A stretch of 64,000 nt of DNA, taken from NCBI GenBank assembly GCA_963663475.2, contig CAXXJV010000002.1:160001-224000 (forward strand), written 5' to 3'. The position numbers and the translations under genes were made by a program. Source of the stretch: Candidatus Cloacimonadales bacterium. Its GTDB lineage: Bacteria; Cloacimonadota; Cloacimonadia; Cloacimonadales; JAFGVF01. Shown one piece after another: positions 1 to 47,745 of the stretch (positions within the stretch are counted from its first letter, which is position 1; each line of letters begins with the position of its first letter). The notes under the pieces were generated by a model. That model ran no database searches. It saw nothing but the letters and a program-made list of their open reading frames with translations, and was not told where the DNA came from.

Positions 1-1489
1 ATCTCATCTCACTAAGTTGAGTTTGCAAATTTATTATGATAGCACTTAAAGCATCTTTCTGTCTGTGAAGATCATTTAACAGAGAAGAAACTTCAGGGTT
101 TAACTCCATACTCTTAATAATTCGTGCTAAAGCAATTTTCCTTTGGGAAAGAGAGATAACTTTTGTTTCTGATTTGATCAAATCTGATAGAATTTGTTGC
201 TTTAATGGATTATTACCAACACTTTTTAATTGAACATTCTGCTCAGCACCTTCTTCAATTAAAGTGGTTATATTTGCAATATTTCTTCTGATACCAATAA
301 CTTTAGGATGGTTTTCTCCATAGGAAGTTAAAGCTCTAGCAAGATCAACTTCGAGATTGAGAAGTCTCATTTTAAGGGGTTCACTGTAGGTTGTTTCGGT
401 AGTATATTCCGAATCTTCTTCTTTTAATCTTTGTTTTAATGCTCGAATATTGGCATTTTCTGATTCAAGTTCAACCTCTGTACTTGAGAGTATGTCTTTA
501 AAACTAGATAAACGCTTAAAATTATCTTCAATATCACCAGAAAAATTTTTAAAATTATGTTTTCTATAGAGATTTTCAATAGCTACATTTAGAGAATCTA
601 ATTCCCTATTATTCCTGTCTAATTGCTCTTCTAAATAGCGGATAGTCTGAGCATAGTTATCATTTCTGATAGACATATCATAGTCATTGACTGCGTAATA
701 GTAGTAATTAGCAATCTGGGCTGCGATATTAGGGTTTGTGTGGGTAGAAGTGAGGTTAATGACTCTTTCTTCATCTCTTAAGGTAGAGGTCTCTAGAGAA
801 GCTTTAATAGCTCCTGGAGAAACAATTCCTTCCATATAACGAGATACTCTAGTAGCTACATCAGATGATTCGATAATCTGTATCCAAGTAGAAAGTTTCA
901 TTTGTTCTTTAAGAACAGGTTTCTGATTAATAACTTTAAGTTCCATAATGTCATTATTAATCAAGAGTTTAGTAGTTGCCTTGTAGATAGGAGTCTGGTT
1001 TATTGAGTAAATATAGGCTGCTAAAATTAAAGCAATTGTTACTAAAATTATCATAAACTTATAACGATAAGCAATCTCTAAATAATCCATGATATTTATT
1101 TCATCTTCAAATATGTTCTTCTTAGGTGGAGCAGGGGGATAATTTGTATAGCGATTTACTTGGTCATTGTTTAGAGAAGAAGTCTGTTGATTTGAACCTG
1201 TATCTGGATTATTCACAAAATCAGTTCCATAAGAACCAATATTGGCTGGCTGATTAATTTCTAAATTAGTCTGATTAGTTACTTGCTGATTAGTTTGGTC
1301 AATATTATTGCTCTTAAGATTAGACTGTAGATCAGGAGAACCATCCTTTTTTTCACTTCTATTAACGAAAACAGATTTTTTCCCATCTTCATTTTTCTCA
1401 GAAGTAAAAGCATTTTTATCAATCTCGCTAGCTTTAGCAGCTGCTCTCATTGATCTTAATTCTGCAATAGATATTTTTTTATCTGCCAT
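1..1489 (-). CDS. Wzc/GumC-type polysaccharide co-polymerase (chain-length determinant), runs off window edge
   Basis: Not in ORF track (open at edge). Hand translation from ATG 1489: MADKKISIAELRSMR..., about 125 aa N/Q-rich leader, then Wzz-type start 'EDEINIMDYLEIAYRYKFMIILVTIALILAAYIYSINQTPIYKATTKLLI', 'NPNIAAQIAN', coiled coils and 'YGENHPKV'. C-terminus (possible BY-kinase) not visible. Confidence 0.85.
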   Translation of the reverse strand, partial: MADKKISIAELRSMRAAAKASEIDKNAFTSEKNEDGKKSVFVNRSEKKDGSPDLQSNLKSNNIDQTNQQVTNQTNLEINQPANIGSYGTDFVNNPDTGSNQQTSSLNNDQVNRYTNYPPAPPKKNIFEDEINIMDYLEIAYRYKFMIILVTIALILAAYIYSINQTPIYKATTKLLINNDIMELKVINQKPVLKEQMKLSTWIQIIESSDVATRVSRYMEGIVSPGAIKASLETSTLRDEERVINLTSTHTNPNIAAQIANYYYYAVNDYDMSIRNDNYAQTIRYLEEQLDRNNRELDSLNVAIENLYRKHNFKNFSGDIEDNFKRLSSFKDILSSTEVELESENANIRALKQRLKEEDSEYTTETTYSEPLKMRLLNLEVDLARALTSYGENHPKVIGIRRNIANITTLIEEGAEQNVQLKSVGNNPLKQQILSDLIKSETKVISLSQRKIALARIIKSMELNPEVSSLLNDLHRQKDALSAIIINLQTQLSEMR

Positions 1490-1492
1490 TAG

Positions 1493-2326
1493 TTACTGCC
1501 CATTGTTTTCTAAATCTTGAAAGACAATTTCTACTAAGTCTTTATCGATAAGTTTGATAGATTCCATAGAGGCTATATCCATGGATATTTTGCAAACTCG
1601 GTTAATTTCTCTTGGAATTCCGTTAGTTTTAGCATGGATTAAGTTTCTTGCTTCAGGAGAAAAAACATGGCTTTCTGCACCTGCTATCTTTAATCTATGC
1701 TGAATATATTTACTAGTCTCATTTGCTGAAAGATGGGAAAGATGGTAACGCATACCTATTCTTTGGTTGACTTGAGGTAACTTTTCAACATTTTTAATTA
1801 AAGATGGTTGACCTATCAAGATGATAATAATTGGACTATCAAAACCAAAGGTTATATTGGTTAAATCTTTTAAATAATCAAGGTCTCGAGAGGCAATTTT
1901 CTGAGCTTCATCAAATAAAAGAAAGAGTCTATTATTTGAGCTATTGAGTTTTTTTTCTAGAAGTTTTCTTAATTTAATTTCTAAAGAATATCTACGGGAA
2001 GGTAGGTTATCAGGGTCTTCTTTAGTTAGCTGATAGAGGGTTTCTTTCATTATCTCAGCAAAACTGTAGGAAGTAGAATTGATATTAACAAGCATGTTGT
2101 CAGGATTTTCTGTTTTTAAAGATTCAATAAGAACTAGTTTTGTAATAGTTTTTCCTGTGCCTACATCACCACTCAGCATTCCCATATTCATAGAACCTGA
2201 TTCTGTAACGTAATGCAGACGTTCTAGTGCTTCTAAATGGTCAGAACTTTTATAGTAAAATCTTGGGTCGTTGTTATCCTGAAAAGGAGGGATTTTTAAG
2301 TTCCAAAAGGAATAATAATCTATCAT
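1493..2326 (-). CDS. ExeA/GspA-type AAA ATPase (stand-alone, no PG-binding tail)
   Basis: N-terminal 'YYSFWNLKIPPFQDNNDPRFYY', Walker A GDVGTGKT, Walker B LLFDEAQ, 'ILIGQP', 'YIQHRL', 'GIPREINRVC'. Confidence 0.9.
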   Translation of the reverse strand: MIDYYSFWNLKIPPFQDNNDPRFYYKSSDHLEALERLHYVTESGSMNMGMLSGDVGTGKTITKLVLIESLKTENPDNMLVNINSTSYSFAEIMKETLYQLTKEDPDNLPSRRYSLEIKLRKLLEKKLNSSNNRLFLLFDEAQKIASRDLDYLKDLTNITFGFDSPIIIILIGQPSLIKNVEKLPQVNQRIGMRYHLSHLSANETSKYIQHRLKIAGAESHVFSPEARNLIHAKTNGIPREINRVCKISMDIASMESIKLIDKDLVEIVFQDLENNGQ

Positions 2327-3015
2327 TAGCTTTCCTCTTTTCTCTGTTTGCTAAGTTTAATCTCAACTCTTCTATTCTTTTCTCTATTTATTTCAGTATC
2401 ATTTGGGGCAATAGGTTTAAATTCTCCATAGCCCATAATCTGCAATTGATCAGCAGAAAAATAATTATTTCTTAAGAAAAATTTAACTATACTAAGAGCT
2501 CTTGCTGTTGATAGCTCCCAGTTAGAAGCATACTTAGTAGTTGATATGGGAATATTATCAGTATGACCTTCTATTCTAATACTCCAACTGTCGCCGTCAT
2601 CAATTATGCTTTGTATTTCTTTAGCAATATCTAAAAGAGTGGACTGTGAGTTCCATTTTAAATCTGCCTTACCACTTTCAAACAAAATTTCTCCTGGAAT
2701 GGAAATAACTTTTTCATTGAGGTCAGAAACTTCTTCATAGAGAGTTGAATCAACTGCTACTTCATTTTCTGATAGTATCTTCTGGGCTTGCTGATCAGCA
2801 ACATTTTGCCAGCCTATTTCAGTGTCTTTTATTAAATAGAAAAAAACAAAGAATATTAAGAGAAGGGTCATCATATCAGAGTAGGGAACTAAGCTCACAT
2901 AAAAACCTGAAAAATCACTCTCAGGGCTGTCAAAATCTTGCCCTTTATGCTGATCTTCTGCAATATCATATTTGTTAGTCTTGATTTTATCCCTATCCTT
3001 TAAAGAATTAAACAT
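2326..3015 (-). CDS. motB: MotB/PomB-type stator subunit
   Basis: TM motif 'VPYSDMMTLLLIFFV' with the conserved ion-binding Asp; OmpA-like PG-binding domain 'EGHTDN...SNWELSTARA...GYGEFKP...NRRVEI'. Confidence 0.92.
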   Translation of the reverse strand: MFNSLKDRDKIKTNKYDIAEDQHKGQDFDSPESDFSGFYVSLVPYSDMMTLLLIFFVFFYLIKDTEIGWQNVADQQAQKILSENEVAVDSTLYEEVSDLNEKVISIPGEILFESGKADLKWNSQSTLLDIAKEIQSIIDDGDSWSIRIEGHTDNIPISTTKYASNWELSTARALSIVKFFLRNNYFSADQLQIMGYGEFKPIAPNDTEINREKNRRVEIKLSKQRKEES

Positions 3016-3757: not shown

Positions 3758-5140
3758 TTAATAGTTTAGTATATAACGTATTTTTTGAAGTGAATGATTT
3801 ATAATTTTTTCAGCTTCATCTTCTTGAATTTTACCGATTACTTCCATATCTTCTTTAAGAATAATAACAGCTCTTTCTGATAATTGAGAGAAAAACTTCT
3901 GCCTAATATTATCTGGCAAGCATTTAAGGAACTGTACCATTTCTAAATGACTAAACTCACTGTTAATCTGCTCAATTTGGACATTCTTGAGATTTAAAAT
4001 ATCATCCATTAGGAATATTTTCTGTTTAACTTGCTCAGCAATTTCTGGTTTTAACTCTTTTAACTTGTTGAAAAGAGTTTGGGCTACACTCAATGAAGAA
4101 GAATTGATAAAGTTTATCATTGTCTTCACATTGTTAATTTTAACAGGATTTTTATCAAGGGCTTCCAGATACTTCTGATACATTCCAACAACCATAATTT
4201 TCATGTCTAATTGCAGAATATTTTCCATCTCTATTATATGTTTCAAGACTTCATCAATAGATCCATCATAAAATTTGAAAAAGTAATCGACCTTACTAGC
4301 TTCAACCTGTGTCAAGATTAAAGCGATTTCACGAGGATTCTCGTTTTTCACAATAGAGAGAAAATTACTGTTAGATAATTCATTAAGGAAATCAAGATTG
4401 GTATTCTCAGCCTCATCATCATCCTTGAGTAATTTTACCTGTAGAGGTTTATTTGAACCTCCTGAAAGCTGATTATTTGCAGCTGATTCTGCACTTTTGA
4501 ACATTTGAAAATCTCTAGTTTCCCCTAACTTTAGCTGGTCAAGGTTAGATATCTTTATTCTTCTTAGGGACTTAGCAATGATTCTTGTTGAATTTCTAAT
4601 ATTATTAATTATCAACATAGCTAAAAGAAAAGCTATGAGTAATAATACGTTTCTAAAATTAAAGAGGGAAGAACTAGCACTAGTAACCAGGGGTAGGTCT
4701 GCTCTAATAGATACTTGGTCCTGAGTTACTAATTCTTGGGAAGAAGTGTTTATGACGATTTCTTCAATCTCTTTAAGTAGCTCTTCTTTAGTGTCTTCTG
4801 GAACCCGCACCATAATCGATAATTTTGTTATTTCAGTAGGTGCATAGTCGCTTAGATCTATGTTAGGCATTGAAGAATCACTCTTACCAACTGGTAATCC
4901 TGGTAGACTTAATTTCTCATCAAGTCTTAAATTACCTTGGTTTGACTCAAATAGATTATACTTTAAATCTAAATCTACAAAGACAATCGCTCTATCAACA
5001 AAAATACTTAAATTTTTCTCTATTCTCTCAGCTAACTCATTTTCTGCCTTTATTTCTCCTAGCGAGTTTTTAGGAGTTGCTGTCAGTAGTGTGTTAGTGC
5101 AAAAGAATAGTGCTAAGATTAATCCAATATATGATTTCAT
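3758..5140 (-). CDS. Membrane-anchored FliG-like rotor protein with N-terminal FliF/RBM3-like periplasmic domain (FliF-FliG-like fusion)
   Basis: Likely ATG 5140 (AGGGGT RBS; track starts at TTG 5194). Signal/TM 'MKSYIGLILALFFC', FliF_C-like 'VFVDLDL...PGLP...ITKLSIMVRV...ELLKEIEEIV...DQVSI', TM 'VLLLIAFLLAMLII', FliG_M-like 'ENPREIALIL', 'IFLMDDI' (MFxF-like), FliG_C torque helix 'FFSQLSERAVIILKEDM'. Confidence 0.8.
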   Translation of the reverse strand: MKSYIGLILALFFCTNTLLTATPKNSLGEIKAENELAERIEKNLSIFVDRAIVFVDLDLKYNLFESNQGNLRLDEKLSLPGLPVGKSDSSMPNIDLSDYAPTEITKLSIMVRVPEDTKEELLKEIEEIVINTSSQELVTQDQVSIRADLPLVTSASSSLFNFRNVLLLIAFLLAMLIINNIRNSTRIIAKSLRRIKISNLDQLKLGETRDFQMFKSAESAANNQLSGGSNKPLQVKLLKDDDEAENTNLDFLNELSNSNFLSIVKNENPREIALILTQVEASKVDYFFKFYDGSIDEVLKHIIEMENILQLDMKIMVVGMYQKYLEALDKNPVKINNVKTMINFINSSSLSVAQTLFNKLKELKPEIAEQVKQKIFLMDDILNLKNVQIEQINSEFSHLEMVQFLKCLPDNIRQKFFSQLSERAVIILKEDMEVIGKIQEDEAEKIINHSLQKIRYILNY

Positions 5141-5751
5141 TAAACTTACCCCTATTGTGGCAAGAATGAGAAATAAGCTAATTTTGGCAAGCACTTTTTT
5201 TTATAATCTTTATAATTCTGCAAAATTTGCATGTTTATGGTTATTATAAACTCAAAATGTCTCCCAAAAATAATGTTAAAATAATATAGTAAAATGTAGA
5301 TTATATCTATGTTAAACAGAAAGATAAGCTGAATATATAGAAATGAAATACTTATCTAAATTAGCAAAATGTCTTCTAAAAGTATCCATTTAGAAGGGAG
5401 ATTAATATTTTCTATACAATCTGCAAATTTAAGAGTCTATTTCCTAATAAACCCTAATATTGCTAGAGAATTTAGCCAATGTACTTATTTCTAATATTCT
5501 ACTATTTTCCCCGAGCTTACAGTCTGAATTTTTCTTTTAAGGAGTCTATCCTAACCAGCGAGTATTCAATGAATAATACATAAATTAATGCAAATAATTA
5601 AGTCTTAATTTTCATTATCCAACAAAGATACTACCAGTAAAAATATAGTGACAATACAAAGATAAATTCATTGATAAAAAAAACTGTTAATTCTTTCTTC
5701 TAGTAATGTGCCTATGGCTCACCTGTGTTTTGTTTCCCTTAGCCATGACTA

Positions 5752-5814
5752 ATCCTTCCTTTACAGTCTTTCGATGAAAGTCCAGGTTTCATCGAAAGAC
5801 TGTAAAGGAAGGAT
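5752..5814. repeat. Perfect 28-bp inverted repeat (palindromic element, copy 1)
   Basis: ATCCTTCCTTTACAGTCTTTCGATGAAA-gtccagg-TTTCATCGAAAGACTGTAAAGGAAGGAT; near-identical copy at about 47485-47544. Confidence 0.95.
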
Positions 5815-6058
5815 CAAGGATGAACCAAGGGTAAAAAACATAATTTCGGAAGGTGAAAATCATTTTAAAGCAATATAAAAACATGTTTATAATTTGCTAG
5901 TTAAAAAATATTTAATATAACTACTATAAATCTACAAAAATAAAATAAATTAAAAATAATCAAGAAATGCAAGCAGAATATTCTCTTGAATCCTATTTTT
6001 TTATTGACTATGATGCTTGTCTAAATATTATCAGCCCATAAATCATAGGAGCACTTTA

Positions 6059-9000
6059 ATGAAGTTATTTATAGCTAAAAATAAGACTATTCTTGTACTT
6101 GCTTATCTCTTAATGTTTGCTACTTTTCTCGCTGGAAACAAGCAGTTTGATCTAAACAGTTGGCAAGGAAACTATAATGTTAAAGGGAAAAATGCTTTTG
6201 ATCAATTTGGTTATCAAATTATGTCTGGTGACTTTAATGGCGATGGAATTGATGATATTATTGCCTCAAGTCCTTCAGCTGATCCATTAGGTAGAAACTC
6301 TGCAGGAGAAGTCTATATTTTTTGGGGTAATGAACAGAGTGAACAGTCTGTCAACATAGATTTAAGTTCTGCTACTGCAGATGTAACCATTATAGGGGCA
6401 GCAAGTGGAGACAAACTAGGCTACTCAATAGCTACCGGATCCTTTAATGGTGATAGCTATAGAGATTTTGCTATATCAGCTCCTTATAGCAATAATGGGC
6501 AGACTCTCCAAACTGGTTCTGTTTACTTATTTTATGGAGGCACAAATCTAGCAGGGACTATTGATTTAAGTATCGATACAGCCCAACACCACTTTCTGGG
6601 ACAAACAACAAATGATTATCTCGGGCAAGAATTAATCTTTACAGACCTTAATAATGACAATAAGGATGAATTAGTAATTTCTGCTCCTGAAGGAGATAAA
6701 GCAGAACTTAATAATTGTGGTTTGGTTTATCTTATATGGTCTCATGAAAGTTATGGACAAACAGTTAATTTATCACAAGCTAGTAATATTTCATTTTTGG
6801 CTGGTTTGTCTATTAATGATAATTTAGGACGATCCCTAGCAAGTGCCAATATTAATAATGATCTTTTTCAAGACTTACTTTTAGGAGCTCCTGGAGTTGA
6901 TGAGGAGAGTCTGATAAATAACGGGAGTGTATATCTTCTTAAAGGGCGGACTTTCTTTCCTTATGGGGAAATATCCCTAGTTAATGATAATTTTATTGAA
7001 ACTGAAATTAAGGGAGGCTTTCATTCCTCAAATTTAGGAAGGACTATGGCTGCTGGTGATATTAATGGAGATGGATTTGGAGATATTAGTCTAAGTGATT
7101 TTTCTCAAAATAGCGCTTCTAATCTGGTTTATATCGTCTATGGAAGCAATTCTCTAGCTAGCTCAATGAGCCTTAACGATGAATCAGCTAATATAAAGAT
7201 ATCTCATCAAGGAATCTCAGATAATTTATTTGCAACAAATCTCTTTATTGGTAATGTAAATCAAACCAGTCCCGAAGATTTAATAATTTCTTCTCCTCAG
7301 GCTTTTTCCAATAATGGTAATGAAAGTGGCTTAGTACATGTTCTTTATGGAAGAAATCAGTTTGAAACAAGCTATGATTTAGCACTAGATTCTTACGATG
7401 AGATATATCATGGACAGGTAGCTAATGCAAATTTGGGTTCTGCTCTAGCTTTAGCTGATTTTAACAATGACCTTAAAACAGATATATTCCTAGGTTCAAT
7501 CAATGCAGGTAATACTAAAGGTTCTCTTTATGGAGTCTATGGAGGAATACCATGGGCCTGGAACCTACTGCCAACTGACGGAGCAAGCAATGTTGATATT
7601 GATCAAGCAATAGCTTTTTCCTTGTCTGATGACCAGCAAATAGACTTAAACTCTCTTAATGTTAATATTGCTGGAACAGCTTATGATATCAATTCTAATA
7701 ATCTCTCCTATAGTGGTTCTGGAAACTTTTATAGGATAACAATTGTACCAGAAGCCTATTTTGGTTATAATCAGATAATCAATGTAAGTATTCAAGCAAG
7801 TGATAATGAAGGTTGGCAGATACCAACAAGCAATTATAGATTTTTTACTAGAGAAGATACTGATCCACCCTTTACTAACCAATGGTTACCAGCTCCTGAC
7901 CAACAAGGAGTTCCAATTGATACTAATATTGAATTTAATGTCTATGATTTAGGAGAAGGGGTTAATCTATCCTCAATTATCGTTAATATTGATGGAACAA
8001 ACTACTATTCTGGTTCTCCTTACTTCTCTCACTTAGGGCAAGTTAATAATTTTAGAATTATAGTTAATCCACCAGACAACTTTTCTTTTGGACAAGAAGT
8101 TTTTGTTACAATTGATTGCCAAGATTTAGCTCCCCTCCCTAATTCTATGTCCACCTTTAGTTATTCATTTATATGTGGACAGGATAACTCAGCTCCATCA
8201 ATTATTGTGATTGAGCCTAGTTATGGGGAAGAGGTGGCCAGAACTAATATCTTATCTGTTGAGGTAGCTGATAGTGAATCAAATCTTAACCAGAACTCCT
8301 TAATCTTTAGACTAGATAATGAAAATATCTTACCATTCTCAGATATTCAAACTCTTAGTAATGGCAATCTAAAAGTTACTTATAATCCTTTAGAAAATCA
8401 GTTATTAACTTATGGACAAAGAGAGATTTATTTTTATGTGGAAGATGCTTCAACTAATGCTAATAGTATTGATACAACTTCTGTTTTTACTGTGATAGCA
8501 GATAATCAAGCCCCCTATACAGCTAATCATTTCCCAGAAAAGTTCTCTGTAGATAATCCAACTAATAGCCAATTTAAGATTGATGTTTTTGATTTGCTCA
8601 GTGGTATCGATCTTACAACTTTATCAATAAAAATTAATGATGTAGAAATTAGTCTCAGTGAAACTACTTCAATATCTGCCCTCAATAATGGATATAGGGT
8701 CATTTATAACCCACCTGAAAGACTTGTGGGGGAGGTATCGGTAGAAGTTCAAGTAAGCGACTTAGAAAATCCAGCTAATACCATGCCTTTAGAAAGCTAT
8801 ACATTTACAACTTCTTTAGATGAAGATGCTCCTTATATTAGTGATTTGTATCCTGAGGAAGGGGCGGTTAATATACCCATAGATGCTAATCTTTCCTTTA
8901 AACTTTATGATGATAAAACAGGGGTAGATAGGTCGTCTATCCAAGTTTTAATAAATGATAATGATGTTAGCCAAGATTTGAATATTGCTACTATTTCAGG

Positions 9001-10723
9001 AGGCTTTGATCTTCTTTACCTGATAGATTACCCTTATGATTTTAATGAGCTGGTAAGTGTCTTTATCAAGTGTTCAGACTTAGAAGAACCAGCTAATTTT
9101 TACGAAAACAGCTATACCTTTAGAGTAACCCCTGACCTAGAAGCTCCTTACTTAGTTAACTTATTGCCTGAGGCTAATGCAAGTGGTGTTGCCGTTGATA
9201 GCGGTGTTTATTTCGAAATCCATGATAATGGTATAGGTATTGATATTGCAAGTCTTGTAATGAAGGTTAATAATGAAAATGTAGTTCCTGAAACTAGTCA
9301 AATTCCTGAAACTATGTTTTATGAGGTTTTTTATAGTGGCCAAGATTTTGAATATGGTCAAGAAGTAAGAGTGCTTGTATCTGTGGATGATTTAGCTACT
9401 AATCCTAATAGCTTAACTAATTTTAACTATAGTTTTACAGTAGTTGATGATGACCAAAGTCCACCAATTTTTACAGGACTAACCCCTGCTGAAGATAGTA
9501 GTGATAACCCTGTGAATACTTCTATATCAATGTCAATAATTGATACAGAATCTGATGTTGATCAGAATTCAATAATATTTAAAATTAATAACACTAGTAT
9601 TGAAGACTATCAGCTTACTCCTCTACAAACAGAAGAAGGGTTTGGTTATAAATTAAACTATCAACCTCAAATCCCTTTTGCATATGGAGAAATAGTCAGG
9701 ATTCAAATATATGCTATGGATACTTCGAGTAATAACAATGCTTCAAATAAATCATATTCTTTTACTTGCCAAGAAGATAATCAAGCTCCTTATCTAGAAA
9801 TATCAACTCCAGCCGATGGCGGTCAAGGTTATGCTAATTCTATTCTATACCTTTCCCTAAAAGATGATCTATCTGGTATTGATGATGATAGCTTCTCCCT
9901 GATCATTAATGGAGATTTTATTACTGCCTATCAAGATTCCTTACATGATAACCGCTTAGAAGTCTGGTATTCAACCCAATCTTTCTTTGCTAATGAAAGT
10001 GTAGCTGTGGACTTTTCTGTATCTGATAATGTAGGTAATACTTTCGAAGATTCTTATAGCTTTGATATTATTCCAGATATTTACCCACCTTATTTTGTTA
10101 TGGAGAAACCAGAAGATAATTCAGATCTTGCTATTTATGATTATTTAGAAATAGCAATCTTGGATAAGGGCGTTGGCATAGAAGAAGAATCTATTTCTTT
10201 TATGTTAAATGGGAGAATTATTGAAAATTATCATTTAGATAGAGATACTTATAATAGTAATCCAGATTCCCTAGGATTCATCCTCAAATATCAGATTGAT
10301 GATACTTATTATCCTGGTCAGAATCTTGCTATCCAGATTTCAGCAAATGATAAAAATCAACCACAAGCTCTTCAAAATATGCAAGAATATAATATTTTTG
10401 TTGAGAGGGCTTTAGCTCAAGATAAGGTGGAAGTTATACCTAATATAATTTCACTCAATTTTGATGGTATTAACGATTATAGCAGGATTATTATTCCTAG
10501 TAGAGCTAAAGTTTCGTGTAAGATATTTACTAGGGCAGGAAAGGAAATACGAGACCTAGCCACAAGTGTCTATCAAGTACAAGGTGATTCTGATAAGCAA
10601 TATCAAGTTGCTATTTGGGATGGTAAAAATTCAGATAATAAAGCTGTCAATGCAGGTATTTATATCTGCCAAGTTAAGTATGGAAGTAAGGTCCATAGAA
10701 ACACTATAACGGTGGCGAAGTAG
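6059..10723 (+). CDS. Giant secreted adhesin-like protein: 7 FG-GAP repeats, 9 Ig-like repeats, type-B T9SS/CHU_C-like C-terminal domain
   Basis: ATG 6059 with AGGAG RBS and signal peptide; seven 'GDxNGDGxxD'-type blades; nine about 110-aa 'DxxAPy...P...V..D..I.F...D' repeats; C-terminal 'VIPNIISLNFDGINDY...WDGKN...NAGIYI'. Confidence 0.85.
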   Translation: MKLFIAKNKTILVLAYLLMFATFLAGNKQFDLNSWQGNYNVKGKNAFDQFGYQIMSGDFNGDGIDDIIASSPSADPLGRNSAGEVYIFWGNEQSEQSVNIDLSSATADVTIIGAASGDKLGYSIATGSFNGDSYRDFAISAPYSNNGQTLQTGSVYLFYGGTNLAGTIDLSIDTAQHHFLGQTTNDYLGQELIFTDLNNDNKDELVISAPEGDKAELNNCGLVYLIWSHESYGQTVNLSQASNISFLAGLSINDNLGRSLASANINNDLFQDLLLGAPGVDEESLINNGSVYLLKGRTFFPYGEISLVNDNFIETEIKGGFHSSNLGRTMAAGDINGDGFGDISLSDFSQNSASNLVYIVYGSNSLASSMSLNDESANIKISHQGISDNLFATNLFIGNVNQTSPEDLIISSPQAFSNNGNESGLVHVLYGRNQFETSYDLALDSYDEIYHGQVANANLGSALALADFNNDLKTDIFLGSINAGNTKGSLYGVYGGIPWAWNLLPTDGASNVDIDQAIAFSLSDDQQIDLNSLNVNIAGTAYDINSNNLSYSGSGNFYRITIVPEAYFGYNQIINVSIQASDNEGWQIPTSNYRFFTREDTDPPFTNQWLPAPDQQGVPIDTNIEFNVYDLGEGVNLSSIIVNIDGTNYYSGSPYFSHLGQVNNFRIIVNPPDNFSFGQEVFVTIDCQDLAPLPNSMSTFSYSFICGQDNSAPSIIVIEPSYGEEVARTNILSVEVADSESNLNQNSLIFRLDNENILPFSDIQTLSNGNLKVTYNPLENQLLTYGQREIYFYVEDASTNANSIDTTSVFTVIADNQAPYTANHFPEKFSVDNPTNSQFKIDVFDLLSGIDLTTLSIKINDVEISLSETTSISALNNGYRVIYNPPERLVGEVSVEVQVSDLENPANTMPLESYTFTTSLDEDAPYISDLYPEEGAVNIPIDANLSFKLYDDKTGVDRSSIQVLINDNDVSQDLNIATISGGFDLLYLIDYPYDFNELVSVFIKCSDLEEPANFYENSYTFRVTPDLEAPYLVNLLPEANASGVAVDSGVYFEIHDNGIGIDIASLVMKVNNENVVPETSQIPETMFYEVFYSGQDFEYGQEVRVLVSVDDLATNPNSLTNFNYSFTVVDDDQSPPIFTGLTPAEDSSDNPVNTSISMSIIDTESDVDQNSIIFKINNTSIEDYQLTPLQTEEGFGYKLNYQPQIPFAYGEIVRIQIYAMDTSSNNNASNKSYSFTCQEDNQAPYLEISTPADGGQGYANSILYLSLKDDLSGIDDDSFSLIINGDFITAYQDSLHDNRLEVWYSTQSFFANESVAVDFSVSDNVGNTFEDSYSFDIIPDIYPPYFVMEKPEDNSDLAIYDYLEIAILDKGVGIEEESISFMLNGRIIENYHLDRDTYNSNPDSLGFILKYQIDDTYYPGQNLAIQISANDKNQPQALQNMQEYNIFVERALAQDKVEVIPNIISLNFDGINDYSRIIIPSRAKVSCKIFTRAGKEIRDLATSVYQVQGDSDKQYQVAIWDGKNSDNKAVNAGIYICQVKYGSKVHRNTITVAK

Positions 10724-12306: not shown

Positions 12307-15300
12307 ATGAAAAAGATATTACTCATATTAGCTCTAGTAATAAATCTGTTAATAATATCGAAAGTCTTCGGTAGTGAAGTCGATTTAACATACACCGAAG
12401 AACAATACTTACAAGAACTGGGACCAATAAAAATAGCAGTAGATCCAGATTGGTACCCCTATGAGTTTGTCGATGAACATGATAACTATGCTGGTATTAT
12501 TCCAGAGATATTGATTTTATTAGAAAACAGATTAAATATCAGGTTCGAAAGAATCCCTACTAAAGATTGGTCAGAAACAATTGCCTTATCCCAAAAAGGA
12601 CAAGTAAGCTTAATCCCTGCCTTAAACCAAACAGAATATCGAGAAGAATGGCTATATTTTACTGATCCAATAATGATAGAACCTAATGTAATTATCACTA
12701 AAAAAGATGCAAGTTCCATCAATAATTTAGCAAAGATTAAAAACAAAACTCTTGTAACTATACCCAATACTATGATTGATGAATGGGCAAGAAAAGATTT
12801 TACTAACCTTAACTTAATCTATCGCGGTACAGAATATGAATGCTTACAAGCCGTTGAATCAGGTCAAGCTGATCTAACAGTTCTTAACCTTCTCTTAACA
12901 CCCTATAGATTAAAAAGACAAGGTTTCCTAGACTTAAAAATAAACAATGAAATCCCAGGATATGCTAACCATATTAGAATGGGAGTTGTAAAATCTGAGC
13001 CCCTCTTAGTTGAAATACTTAATAAGGGGATTAGGTCAATTGCTTTCTATGAAAAAGAAGCAATTATCCAGAAATTTATTCAAAGTAATATGGAAGAACC
13101 TCTCAATTATCCTGTTATATTTACTATTAGTTTCGTAGCTATTCTCATTGCTTTAATTTTGTTTCTTTGGAATAGAAAACTAAGAAAACTAAACTTGCAA
13201 ATTAAAGCAGGAGAAGAAAAACAACGAGCAATTATTCAAGCAATACCTGATGGTTTAGCTATTTCTGATTTGCAAGGTATGATAACCTATGTTTCTAAAG
13301 AAGCATTAAAGATGTGGGGCTTTTCTTCAAAAAATGATGCTGTTGGTAAAAACATTTTGAACTTTATTCATCCCAGCTATCATGATAAAGCTCTAGATAA
13401 TATTAAACAAATGTTGCAAGGTATTTCAACAGGCTTTACAGAATACAAGATGCTAAAAAAGAATAGGAAAAGATTCTATGCAGAAGCTAATGCAGAGGTT
13501 ATAAAGGATAATAATGAAAAATCAAATGCTATTCTTTTTGTAATAAGAGATATTACTGAGAAAAAACAAACAGAACTTAAACTTAAAAAAGCTATTACCC
13601 GTTATGAATCAATAATAAATCATTCACGAACAATAAATTGGGAAATTGATAATAATGGACTATATACCTATGTAAGTAGTAATGTTAAGCATGTTCTCGG
13701 CTATGATAAAAAAGAAATTGTCAGGAAAATGCATTTTTATGATCTTTTCCCTGCAAATATGCCTGAAGATTTTAAAGAAAAAGTCTTAAATATAATGCGA
13801 GAAAAGAAGTCTATTTTGGATCTTGAAAACCCTGTTGTTCATAAAGAAGGAAGATTGATATGGTTACTTACTTCAGGCTTACCTAAGTTAAATGAACAAG
13901 GTAAAACAATTGGTTACCAAGGCTCAGGAACCGATATCTCTTTACGTAAGAATGCTGAAGAGAGACTTAAAGCTCAGAGTAAGTATCAAAAGACTATTGC
14001 AGAAGTCTCATCCCAGTTTATAGATGTTAACTTGGATAATTACCAAGATAAGTTTATGATGATGCTATCTAAACTAGGAAATGAACTAAATGCTAGTCAT
14101 ACCTTCATTCTAGAATTATCAGAAGATAAAAAGATCCTCAGAAACACCTATGAATGGACTGCTAAAGGAGTAATACCAAGTAAGAAAAAACTAGATCAAG
14201 TTAAATTGTCTGACTTCCCAGGAATAGCAGAAGTTATTGAAAAGCAAGAAAGAATTCTGGTTAAAGATATTGATGAACTTACTTCAGATAATCCTTTTAA
14301 AGACTTCTTAAAGTTTATTGGAGTAAAATCAGGAATATGTTTGCCTATTATCAGAAGTAATAAATTCTTTGGTTATTTTGGTTTTGATTCAGTTTATCTG
14401 CCCCTTAACATAGTTGAAGAAGATCTTGAACTTCTCCAAATTGCAGTTAATGTTATTGGAGATATTTATATTAGAAACAATATTGAACTAGAAAAAGCTA
14501 AAATACAAGATTCTCTGAGGGAAGCTAGTATCCAGGCCCAACAGGCTAATAAAGCTAAATCCGAATTCTTGGCTAATATGAGTCATGAAATTAGAACCCC
14601 TCTTAATGGTGTTATTGGTTTTACAGAGTTATTGTTAAATACAGACCTTGATCCAGTCCAAGAACAATATGCCTACCATACAAATGTCTCAGGACAAGCT
14701 CTACTAGGTATCATTAATGATATTCTAGATTTCTCAAAGATTGAAGCAGGCAAACTAGATCTGGATATCCATGAAGTACATATCCATGATCTGCTAAATC
14801 AAGTGGTAGATATTCTTCAATATCAAGCAGATAAAAAGAAGATTGAACTCCTAATTGATATTGATCCTAAACTTCCAGATTTAATAAAAGCAGACTCAAT
14901 AAGGCTCAAACAAATTTTGATTAATCTTTTAAGTAATGCTATTAAATTCACAGAAAAAGGGCAAGTCAAAATGAAAGTTGATTTTGAGCAAGCTGATAAC
15001 TTCAAGGGGGCTTGTACTTTTTCTATTGCTGATACTGGGATTGGAATTCCTCAAAATCAATTGAAGAAGCTCTTTCTTGCCTTCTCCCAAGCTGATGGTT
15101 CAATCACTAGAAAATATGGAGGGACTGGTTTAGGATTAACTATTTCTAACTTATTAGTCCAAAAAATGGGTGGGGAAATACAGGTTGATTCTCAAGAAGG
15201 TAAGGGCTCTAACTTCTATTTCACTATTATAACTGATTATTATCGACAAGATAGAAAGGATATCGAACACGATTATTCCCATAAAAAGATCTTGATAGTA

Positions 15301-16122
15301 GATGATAACGACCATAATCGCCAGATTATTGAAAAGAATCTTAATCATTGGGGAATTAATTATCTTAGTGCTAACTCAGGCCAAGAAGCCTTGGATATTC
15401 TTGCTAAGGATAATGAGATAGATTTAGCTATTTTTGATTTAATTATGCCAGGAAAGGATGGAATAGAAAGTATTAGGGAGCTAAGACAAAGATTTGATAA
15501 CTATAAAAATCTACCAATAATCCTCCTTCATAGCTCTGTAGAGGATAAAAAAATCAATCAAGAAGCACAAAACTTGAATATTGCTCACAAAATGGTAAAA
15601 CCACTTAAAGCAAAAGAGTTGAAAGAACTTATCTTCTCAATATTTGAAGATAATTCTCGTAACATAATTAAGCTCTCTGCTAAATCTTATGAACCAACCA
15701 CTTATACTCTTGATAAGGGTAAACAGAAGGTCCTTATAGCTGAAGATGTGGAGTTAAATTTAGTCTTAATTAAAACTATCATTAAAAAGGCTATTCCACT
15801 GGTAGAGACAGTTACTGTAGTCAATGGTCAGGAAGCAGTAGATGTCTTTAAAAAGAACAAGTTTGATTTAGTTTTAATGGATGTTCAAATGCCTGTTATG
15901 GATGGACTACAAGCTACTAAAATTATCAGAACTTTAGAAAAAACAAGAGATCATAAAACACCTATATTAGCTTTAACAGCTGGGGCAACTAAAGAAGAAA
16001 CTAGAAAATGCCTTGAAGCTGGTATGGATGAAATAGTTACAAAACCTATTGACCAAGAAAAACTAAGATCTATTTTAGATAAACTACTTAAACCCAATAA
16101 TGCAGTAGATCTTTGTGAATAG
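12307..16122 (+). CDS. Hybrid sensor histidine kinase (periplasmic SBP, 2 PAS, GAF, HisKA, HATPase, 2 REC)
   Basis: 'DPDWYPYEF' SBP domain; TM; H-box '[15 protein letters not shown]'; '[10 protein letters not shown]', 'DTGIGI', 'GGTGLGL'; REC 'DLIMP' and '[10 protein letters not shown]'. Confidence 0.95.
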
Positions 16123-47100: not shown

Positions 47101-47745
47101 TTTCCAAGTAGTACAGTCTTACATCTTATACCATCTTTAACCCCAATGGCTCAATAGAACTTTGGAAAAGAATCTTGCACCCTTCATCAAAGTTCTATTG
47201 GGCCATTCGGTTTAACCCAAATAGCGCAGTAGACCTTTTTGGGGATTCAAGACTTATCCCTGACTTGAACTTGAGCCTGCTTTTTGTTGGAGACCAGACT
47301 TCCTCAGCGGTAGGCAAGGGACTTCGGGTGAAGAGTGTCGGAAGTCGCTACTCCTTGAGCAACTCCCGTCACTCTTCACTAAAGCTCTACTACACTATCT
47401 GTGTTTAACTTCCAACTGATGAAAGGGATTTCATCCCTTGTGAGAATTATATTCTACTAAATCTTACCCTATTCATCCTTATTTCTTCCTTTACACTCTT
47501 TCGATGAAAACTGGACTTTCATCGAAAGACTGTAAAGGAAGGATCAATGATGATAGGGGAAAAGTAGACTGGAGTTTCTCACCGTAGGCAAGGTACTTAA
47601 ACGGAGAGCACTCTCTCAAGTAGACTGGAGTTCCTCAACCGTAGGCAAGGGACTTCAACGGAGAGCACTCTCTCAAGTAGACCGGAGTTCCTCAACCGCA
47701 GGTAAGGGACTTCGGACGGAGAGGTAAGGGACTTCAACGGAGAGC
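47101..47745. repeat. Mosaic of palindromic REP/MITE-like modules (BIME-like)
   Basis: 20-bp IR 47145-47207; IR-bounded unit 47212-47408; 28-bp-type palindrome 47485-47544; three tandem 56-57-bp GTAG units 47562-47745; several modules recur at 5752, 16091, 25349-25544, 53699 and 58153. Confidence 0.85.

Follow-up and report, generated by a model that had tools for sequence, protein, structure and literature searches.

A natural FliF–FliG fusion with its own MotAB-type stator in Cloacimonadota: a putative rotor–stator module beside an outer-membrane barrel and a giant adhesin

To our knowledge, the torque interface between FliG and MotAB is known from flagella only; ExbBD, TolQR, GldLM and ZorAB use different partners. 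We analysed a 64,000-nt stretch of DNA (hereafter the window) from a Candidatus Cloacimonadales bacterium (GenBank assembly GCA_963663475.2, contig CAXXJV010000002.1, positions 160,001 to 224,000 of the forward strand), in which one gene encodes part of the MS-ring protein FliF and part of FliG as a single polypeptide, followed by genes for a MotA- and a MotB-type stator subunit (Table 1). Fusions of FliF to FliG have been made in the laboratory. Assembly and rotation were unimpaired in Salmonella, according to the passages of PMC4768692 that cite Francis 1992 and Thomas 2001, and parts of PMC10941966 and PMC11481574 (PDB 8z4d) describe Salmonella and Vibrio fusions in which one chain can form rings. 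A natural fusion of about 330 aa occurs in Chlamydiaceae; as described in passages of Bergeron 2016 (PeerJ, PMC4768692), it consists of ring-building motif (RBM) 2, one RBM-like segment and an M-like region of FliG only, and was discussed in relation to the injectisome. We found no description in the literature of a natural FliF–FliG fusion with its own MotAB, the Chlamydiaceae protein being the closest. The passages of PMC12505986 that class stators as flagellar or generic do not mention such a module. FliG and MotA are unmentioned in the main text of two Cloacimonadota genomics papers, whose supplementary tables may list them.

The window module shares with the flagellar motor core (the RBM3/S-ring part of the FliF MS-ring, FliG and MotAB/PomAB) an RBM3-like domain, a transmembrane (TM) helix, FliG_M and FliG_C with the torque-helix charges, a flagellar-type MotA and a MotB with plug, Asp and OmpA-like domain. 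It differs in that its rotor is one polypeptide, lacking RBM1, RBM2, FliG_N and the FliF C-terminal tail and having a short RBM3 insert. FliM and FliMN_C are unmatched in the genome, and the module is accompanied by a giant adhesin and a barrel/TPR protein of the outer membrane. Like the Chlamydiaceae protein, in so far as the passages cited describe it, the fusion occurs naturally in a bacterium without flagella and links a shortened FliF to a cytosolic domain resembling FliG. It differs in having RBM3, FliG_C with the torque helix as well as FliG_M, and a MotAB of its own. The laboratory fusions, in contrast, join full-length FliF to full-length FliG within a complete flagellum, whereas the window fusion is natural and trimmed and has no flagellum around it. 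A further comparison is offered by Bacteroidota's type IX secretion system (T9SS) and gliding machinery, where type-B C-terminal-domain proteins pair with PorP-like proteins (passages of PMC9143113) and the SprB/SprF pair of Flavobacterium is driven by GldLM (passages of PMC9143113 and PMC8986121). There too, a giant adhesin with a CHU_C domain stands beside a PorV/PorP-like barrel and a 5:2-type motor powered by ions, and SprA is encoded in the window's genome. The window motor is MotAB with a FliF–FliG fusion rather than GldLM, however; its barrel has a TPR tail, and the module is accessory, SprA being near-universal in the phylum and the fusion not. The module has the look of a flagellar motor core put to a different use. 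With a probability of roughly 0.6, we infer from the sequences that it forms a flagellum-independent, ion-driven machine in which a ring of the fusion would assemble and rotate, its output probably being the barrel–adhesin pair.

The longest open reading frame (ORF) at the locus spans 3758-5194 on the minus strand and has a GTG start; an ATG at 5140 yields a product of 460 aa (P0001). The same Met-Lys begins each of the 11 aligned homologues, so that the coordinates of the 460-aa form fit. The parts follow each other as a hydrophobic N-terminus, about 130–135 residues devoid of hydrophobic segments, a TM helix, a basic stretch, a low-complexity linker and a C-terminal half of about 215 aa. An initial annotation, made from the sequence alone, had read a single-chain fusion here; the reading frame is real, and profile matches supported the order RBM3-like domain, TM, FliG_M, FliG_C. 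The neighbouring stator, barrel/TPR and adhesin genes had gone unnoticed in it. The TM helix that it had claimed was located by hydropathy at residues 160–178. Of its export signal, the hydrophobic N-terminus stood, and such a stretch is present in most relatives; a cleaved signal and an N-terminal anchor are not distinguishable there. Behind the TM helix, N180, I188, A189, K190, R193 and K196 are invariant among the 11 aligned homologues. Because conserved basic residues (NNIRNSTRIIAKSLRRIK) directly follow the helix, the C-terminal part was placed in the cytoplasm. The predicted topology is best explained by a bitopic inner-membrane protein with a periplasmic RBM3-type domain and cytoplasmic FliG_M and FliG_C. 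The ESM Atlas model of one homologue (P0024) was poor (predicted TM score 0.28), and it yielded structural neighbours at family level only.

The C-terminal half was compared with known structures by means of two profiles, one of 12 close homologues (A1) and one of 30 diverse members (A2). A1 matched the FliG of Aquifex (3hjl) at 6.8e-21 and that of Thermotoga (1lkv) at 2.3e-20, and A2 matched 1lkv at 6.9e-46. The window protein itself matched NCBIfam TIGR00207 (fliG) at 3.3e-21 over model positions 109–308 of 338, which cover the M and C domains but not N; at 76 bits, the match stays far below the equivalog cut-off of 226.7. In Pfam, FliG_C was matched at 1.8e-15 and FliG_M weakly, while MgtE_N, which the initial annotation had named as an alternative identity of this half, reached 0.0026, under its cut-off. 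The FliG identity was thus confirmed. The window protein has no match to FliG_N (PF14842), whose place is occupied by the TM helix and the linker.

In the alignments to 3hjl and 1lkv, 'ENPREIALIL' falls on EHPQTIAL, 'IFLMDDI' on MF(T/V)FEDI, and the putative torque helix SERAVIILKEDME on SKRAAKLFLEDME. The two motifs had been proposed as EHPQ-like and MFxF-like. Both align on their FliG counterparts, but the first is not conserved across the family: among 28 diverse members, E was found in 20, the next position was variable, P was found in 14 and E in 14. This looseness is in keeping with the lack of a FliM in the genome. The charges of the torque helix were conserved, as had been expected. 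In the same 28 members, the equivalent of E. coli FliG R281 (R423) was Arg in 27, and the equivalents of D288 and D289 (positions 430 and 431) were acidic in 28 and 27 respectively. In E. coli, MotA R90 pairs with FliG D289 and MotA E98 with FliG R281 (passages of PMC7564593 and PMC12505986).

The periplasmic part was more difficult to assign. Its predicted elements follow the order helix, strand, insert, strand, helix, strand, and the insert, which separates the first strand from the second, carries an SLPGLPV motif that is invariant. When the domain was scanned against Pfam as a single sequence, nothing meaningful came up, the window protein alone having no PF08345 match, and A1 found no FliF in the PDB; homology to FliF RBM3 is visible only with broader profiles. 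A2 matched FliF chains 8z5s (6.8e-6), 9yh6_Oj (2.5e-4), 6scn (3.7e-4) and 12dr (1.4e-3). As these matches could lean on the TM helix, a third profile (A3) was built from the periplasmic stretch alone, from an alignment of 24 sequences with signal and TM excluded. It matched 9yh6_Oj, a 144-residue FliF chain deposited as 34 chains, at 3.4e-6 over the whole domain. Five of the six entries in its match list were FliF chains, and the sixth was unrelated, with an E-value of 0.9. Five of the 24 members individually matched Pfam YscJ_FliF_C (PF08345), at best with 4.2e-5, whereas any other family was matched by at most one member. Finally, the N-domain profile of the family was compared by hhalign with six RBM3 regions of FliF that came from flagellar loci, which gave a probability of 94% (E 1.5e-7, 113 columns). 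By these three tests the ring-motif pattern reported for this segment was borne out, and a ring-building motif is recognizable in it at the level of sequence. We conclude from the profile comparisons that the predicted periplasmic domain is homologous to FliF RBM3. RBM1 and RBM2 are missing, as had been noted: the periplasmic part comprises only about 135 aa, and PF01514 had no match genome-wide.

The MotA gene begins 12 bases downstream of the fusion gene and overlaps motB by 8 nt. Its product scored better with the models for MotP (1e-43), PomA (4.9e-39) and MotA (1.4e-37) than with those for TolQ (2.4e-4) and ExbB (1.6e-3), all of these scores being under the equivalog cut-offs; MotA and PomA chains in the PDB were matched at 2e-30 to 5e-28. 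The column of PomA R88 holds Arg in 36 of 45 MotA homologues and Lys in five more. The MotB product matched MotB_plug at 4.8e-7 and OmpA at 5.4e-19, and its Asp47 is present in 38 of 42 homologues. Judged by these scores, the predicted stator is of the flagellar type, nearer MotA/PomA/MotP than ExbB/TolQ.

The host genome (3.30 Mb, two contigs, 99.2% complete) contains a single FliG_C match, the fusion gene. FHIPEP (FlhA), YscJ_FliF, Flagellin_N, FliM and FliMN_C had no match in it, although each of these searches gave matches in four flagellated control genomes; rod and hook families were not searched. The earlier claim that an export apparatus is lacking agrees with the missing FHIPEP and YscJ_FliF matches. 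In the phylum, FlhA was found in 24 of 232 species genomes, and a published survey, as seen in part, gives flagellar genes in five Cloacimonadota genomes (10.1101/2021.10.08.463351). Some match to the fusion was found in 76 of the 232; 47 of these, as a count of rows, include the N-domain. FlhA stood alongside an N-domain-containing match in only 3 of the 47 (G118, G119, G121).

A word-indexed search returned 16 family members of 40–99% identity and then canonical FliGs at 1e-8. When the profile was searched exhaustively, 37 representatives reached E <= 1e-30; about 30 of them are full-length (440–490 aa), and many other FliG-domain architectures were also found. Members came from Cloacimonadota and from Candidatus Electryonea clarkiae, which belongs to the phylum Ca. 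Electryoneota of the FCB (Fibrobacterota–Chlorobiota–Bacteroidota) group. At 30 loci from 30 Cloacimonadota genomes, MotA followed the fusion in every case and MotB in 29, the exception ending at a contig end. A barrel/TPR gene lay directly upstream on the same strand at 22 of these loci; six, which form the window's family, had a divergent adhesin, and two had neither within their short flank. When distant Cloacimonadota loci were extended, a co-directional block of adhesin, barrel/TPR, fusion, MotA and MotB was found in six of seven. The three Electryoneota-type metagenome loci all had the order fusion, MotA, MotB, FG-GAP/CHU_C adhesin, barrel/TPR. A homologue of the window adhesin or another giant adhesin was next to the module at 8/8 close, 6/7 distant and 3/3 Electryoneota-type loci. 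The adhesins vary among loci (FG-GAP, Big_9, cadherin-like, PKD; 956 to >3399 aa), and those of Electryoneota type matched the window adhesin at 1e-117 to 1e-135.

In the window, the giant surface protein is transcribed divergently from the fusion, and its start may be an ATG 14 codons further in. It matched FG-GAP at 5.8e-38 and CHU_C at 2.3e-6, with 28.1 bits against a Pfam cut-off of 27. Nine of nine further barrel homologues matched PorV_fam and five of nine PorP/SprF, all below the curated cut-offs; the Pfam PorP_SprF cut-off was passed only by the Electryonea-type barrel homologue.

Table 1. Features of the fusion locus in the window (positions counted from its first letter)
Feature	Position	Strand	Evidence
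FliF(RBM3)-TM-FliG(M+C) fusion P0001, 460 aa	3758..5140	-	ORF and domain matches
N-terminal hydrophobic segment, signal peptide or N-terminal anchor (residues 1-21)	5078..5140	-	read from sequence
FliF RBM3-like periplasmic domain, predicted (residues ~24-152)	4685..5071	-	A3/A2 profiles, Pfam, hhalign
TM helix (residues 160-178)	4607..4663	-	Kyte-Doolittle hydropathy window
FliG middle and C-terminal domains (residues ~245-458)	3767..4408	-	3hjl 6.8e-21, 1lkv 2.3e-20; 1lkv 6.9e-46 with A2
Torque helix SERAVIILKEDME with R423, E430, D431	3842..3880	-	alignment to FliG torque helix
MotA/PomA-type stator A subunit, 245 aa	3008..3745	-	MotA_ExbB 5.1e-25; MotP/PomA models; PDB
MotB-type stator B subunit, 229 aa: plug, TM with Asp47, OmpA-like peptidoglycan-binding domain	2326..3015	-	
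ExeA/GspA-like AAA ATPase, PEP-CTERM-associated type	1493..2326	-	AAA_22 1.2e-15; TIGR03015 1.2e-41, below cut-off
Wzz/Wzc-type polysaccharide co-polymerase, N part	2..1489	-	Wzz 9.4e-11
Giant surface protein, 1568 aa: FG-GAP repeats, Ig-like domains, C-terminal CHU_C type-B T9SS signal	6017..10723	+	
PorV/PorQ/PorP-like outer-membrane beta-barrel with C-terminal TPR extension, 492 aa	10732..12210	+	PorV_fam 1.1e-9 and TPR

The rotor–stator reading is favoured because the torque-helix charges, a flagellar-type MotA with the R88-column Arg, and the Asp, plug and peptidoglycan anchor of MotB are all kept. By homology, the fusion would oligomerize into a ring via RBM3, and a MotA5B2-like stator would act on the torque helix of FliG and so turn the ring. 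The conserved barrel/TPR and giant adhesin partners suggest what the load of the rotor is, the output being assigned to them because of gene linkage. The TPR tail would then probably carry motion or force across the periplasm to the outer-membrane pair, and, much as GldLM drives SprB/SprF in Flavobacterium, the adhesin might be moved, presented or helped in secretion.

Several observations weigh against this reading. The RBM3 insert measures about 35 residues in the fusion against about 85–110 in the aligned FliFs, so that a FliF-like beta-collar may not form. At the stator interface, the MotA column of PomA E96 (E. coli E98) is hydrophobic (L/I/M) in the family; D or E occurs one column further on in only 24 of 45 homologues, where the loop may be misaligned by one position. 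On the rotor side, the basic residue behind the 'GPV' of canonical FliG is S, T or N in the 28 members. The T9SS-type matches of the partners are weak: those of the barrel to PorV/PorP models all fall under the curated NCBIfam cut-offs (for the window barrel, PorV_fam 1.1e-9 with a cut-off of 90), and CHU_C was found at E <= 1e-3 in only three of seven adhesins scanned. One locus (L055, G144:C42, 11586-20000) has two tandem fusion–MotA–MotB sets, and neither a barrel nor an adhesin lies near them. Moreover, the genomes of a single phylum are kin, and the linkage counts are not independent; the eight close Cloacimonadales loci, from metagenome-assembled genomes (MAGs), probably overlap the 30 genomes.

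A more specific proposal is that a ring of RBM3–FliG chains, spun by MotAB and coupled through the TPR tail of the PorV/PorP-like barrel to a giant T9SS-type adhesin, drives the adhesin around or along the surface. This would be a second kind of rotary envelope machine made of flagellar parts and would amount to surface motility or powered adhesion of a new kind in non-flagellated Cloacimonadota and Electryoneota. We put this forward tentatively, and the odds are against it in this full form.

The short insert also speaks for a second explanation, in which no ring is formed. Single or paired copies of the fusion would act as a force transducer in the manner of TonB, TolA or GldM, with the FliG part as a handle gripped by MotAB and energy passed to the outer-membrane barrel. 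Passages of PMC9389320 and PMC12505986 describe ExbBD, TolQR, GldLM and ZorAB as energizing the envelope without a large rotor ring, and the partner here is a barrel in the outer membrane whose TPR tail is periplasmic. However, in those systems the transducer is held by the B subunit or within the A pentamer and not by a FliG torque helix, the charges of which are conserved in the fusion. RBM domains, as their name says, build rings, and 9yh6, which the periplasmic part matched best in the PDB, has 34 FliF chains. We therefore regard a non-rotary transducer as rather unlikely.

The genes that follow motB in the window raise the question of polysaccharide export. The motB gene overlaps the AAA ATPase gene by 1 nt, and the Wzz/Wzc gene lies 3 nt behind the latter and runs past the window edge into a bacterial tyrosine (BY)-kinase-like domain, followed by genes for a LytR/SLBB protein, Wza and a 921-aa protein. 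This full order, including the ATPase and Wzz/Wzc genes, was kept at 8/8 named Cloacimonadales MAG loci, as it should be if the rotor–stator drove or gated the Wzc/Wza machinery of its own operon in the window's family. The ATPase and polysaccharide genes were beside the module at 0/7 distant Cloacimonadota and 0/3 Electryoneota-type loci, however, where barrel/TPR and adhesin persist. Since these genes are missing at distant loci, the stable module consists of five genes, and linkage to polysaccharide genes belongs to the window's family only. It is improbable that energizing export is what the module is for; a lineage-specific second link may exist in the window's family.

The module could also be the general T9SS motor of the phylum, in place of GldLM/PorLM. 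SprA is present in the genome and the partners are T9SS-like. GldL and GldM (TIGR03513, TIGR03517, PF12081) had no match in the genome, but neither did they in any of 14 control genomes, so that the sensitivity of this search is unproven; GldM_1st had no match over its cut-off in the 232 phylum genomes, in a search without positive control. A gldKLMN-like cluster was sought in vain, only proteins with an FGE-sulfatase domain being found. The distribution speaks against this role. SprA occurs in 218 of the 232 genomes and in 96 of 98 genomes of one family (f3), whereas the fusion occurs in none of those 98. The proposal was rejected on these counts and appears very improbable.

A tree of 167 FliG_MC domains was calculated with FastTree, a quick method, with midpoint rooting and with the best matches to the fusion profile as rows. 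Cloacimonadota-type fusions formed one clade (45 rows, SH-like support 95) and the Electryoneota type another (10 rows, support 100), while the canonical FliGs of flagellated Cloacimonadota lay deep inside the canonical cluster. These separate clades indicate that the fusion did not arise recently from the flagellar FliG of the phylum itself. That the module is a decaying, functionless remnant of a lost flagellum, as the presence of some flagellated Cloacimonadota might suggest, was rejected as scarcely credible on conservation, synteny and tree, given that the frames are intact in all but one (a single TAG) of the full-length matches listed, that functional residues are invariant from 99% down to about 19% identity, that synteny is fixed across two phyla and that the FliG domain does not derive from the phylum's canonical FliG.

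The module would be a minimal torque-generation system of one rotor protein and two stator proteins. If the rotor–stator reading is true, such a pair operates without export apparatus, rod or filament, which bears on the origin or reuse of the flagellar motor, on the handling of large adhesins in the FCB group and on the surface behaviour of abundant uncultured bacteria of wastewater and sediment. Under the more specific proposal of an adhesin-driving ring, the separate, deep position of the fusion FliG domains would also be informative on the role of the rotor–stator pair apart from the flagellum.

Related architectures were also encountered. P0104 (552 aa; source name Desulfomonilia) has an N-terminal TM, an RBM3-like segment, a second TM and a canonical-looking FliG_MC (EHPQTIAVVL, MFVFDDI). 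Because its FliG domain nests among canonical FliGs, it looks like an independent fusion event. P0123 and P0131 (195–196 aa) are split forms with the RBM3-like domain and TM only. A long form consists of a 662–674-aa FliF-like/FliG_M/FliG_C fusion, a 368–408-aa protein without family match and a TPR protein of about 220 aa. It was seen in L063 (G208:C1:606000-625000, 4643-9897, minus strand), where MotA and MotB follow the long-form genes, and in L071-L077 (e.g. L071, L073, L076 and L077), and is carried by six Cloacimonadota genomes of 1.5–1.6 Mb (family f14) without FlhA and without SprA, as well as by metagenome contigs. The long-form modules have the same rotor–stator core as the window module, which differs in its shorter fusion (about 460 aa), in the TPR being fused to a PorV/PorP-like barrel and in having a giant adhesin in the set. 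Between the window barrel and the 368–408-aa protein hhalign gave 0.3%, no detectable similarity. The window thus adds a short-form family, a barrel–TPR fusion and a tie to a T9SS-type adhesin across two phyla.

At L055, each of the two tandem sets is followed by a gene for a TPR/YfiO-like lipoprotein, and a gene for a sigma factor of the extracytoplasmic function (ECF) type lies upstream on the other strand. At two distant loci, a gene for an MscS-like mechanosensitive channel (about 300 aa) overlaps the end of motB (L058, 8499-9404, minus strand; L059, 14088-14990, plus strand), and an MscS-family gene is also found near the operon in the window's own locus (L006, 7880-9115). Directly after the barrel/TPR gene, the window encodes a hybrid sensor kinase of 1271 aa (12307-16122, plus strand) with solute-binding, PAS, HisKA/HATPase and two receiver domains, which is a possible regulator of the module. 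Between the divergent operons, at 5726-5840, lies an imperfect palindrome with 54-nt arms that are 78% complementary and a perfect 26-nt core. Rfam gave only sub-threshold matches of miRNA-like hairpins in this intergenic region, which were taken as chance. The palindrome is a dispersed repeat, with 80 strand-matches at about 40 sites genome-wide, and recurs in the window at 47484-47542.

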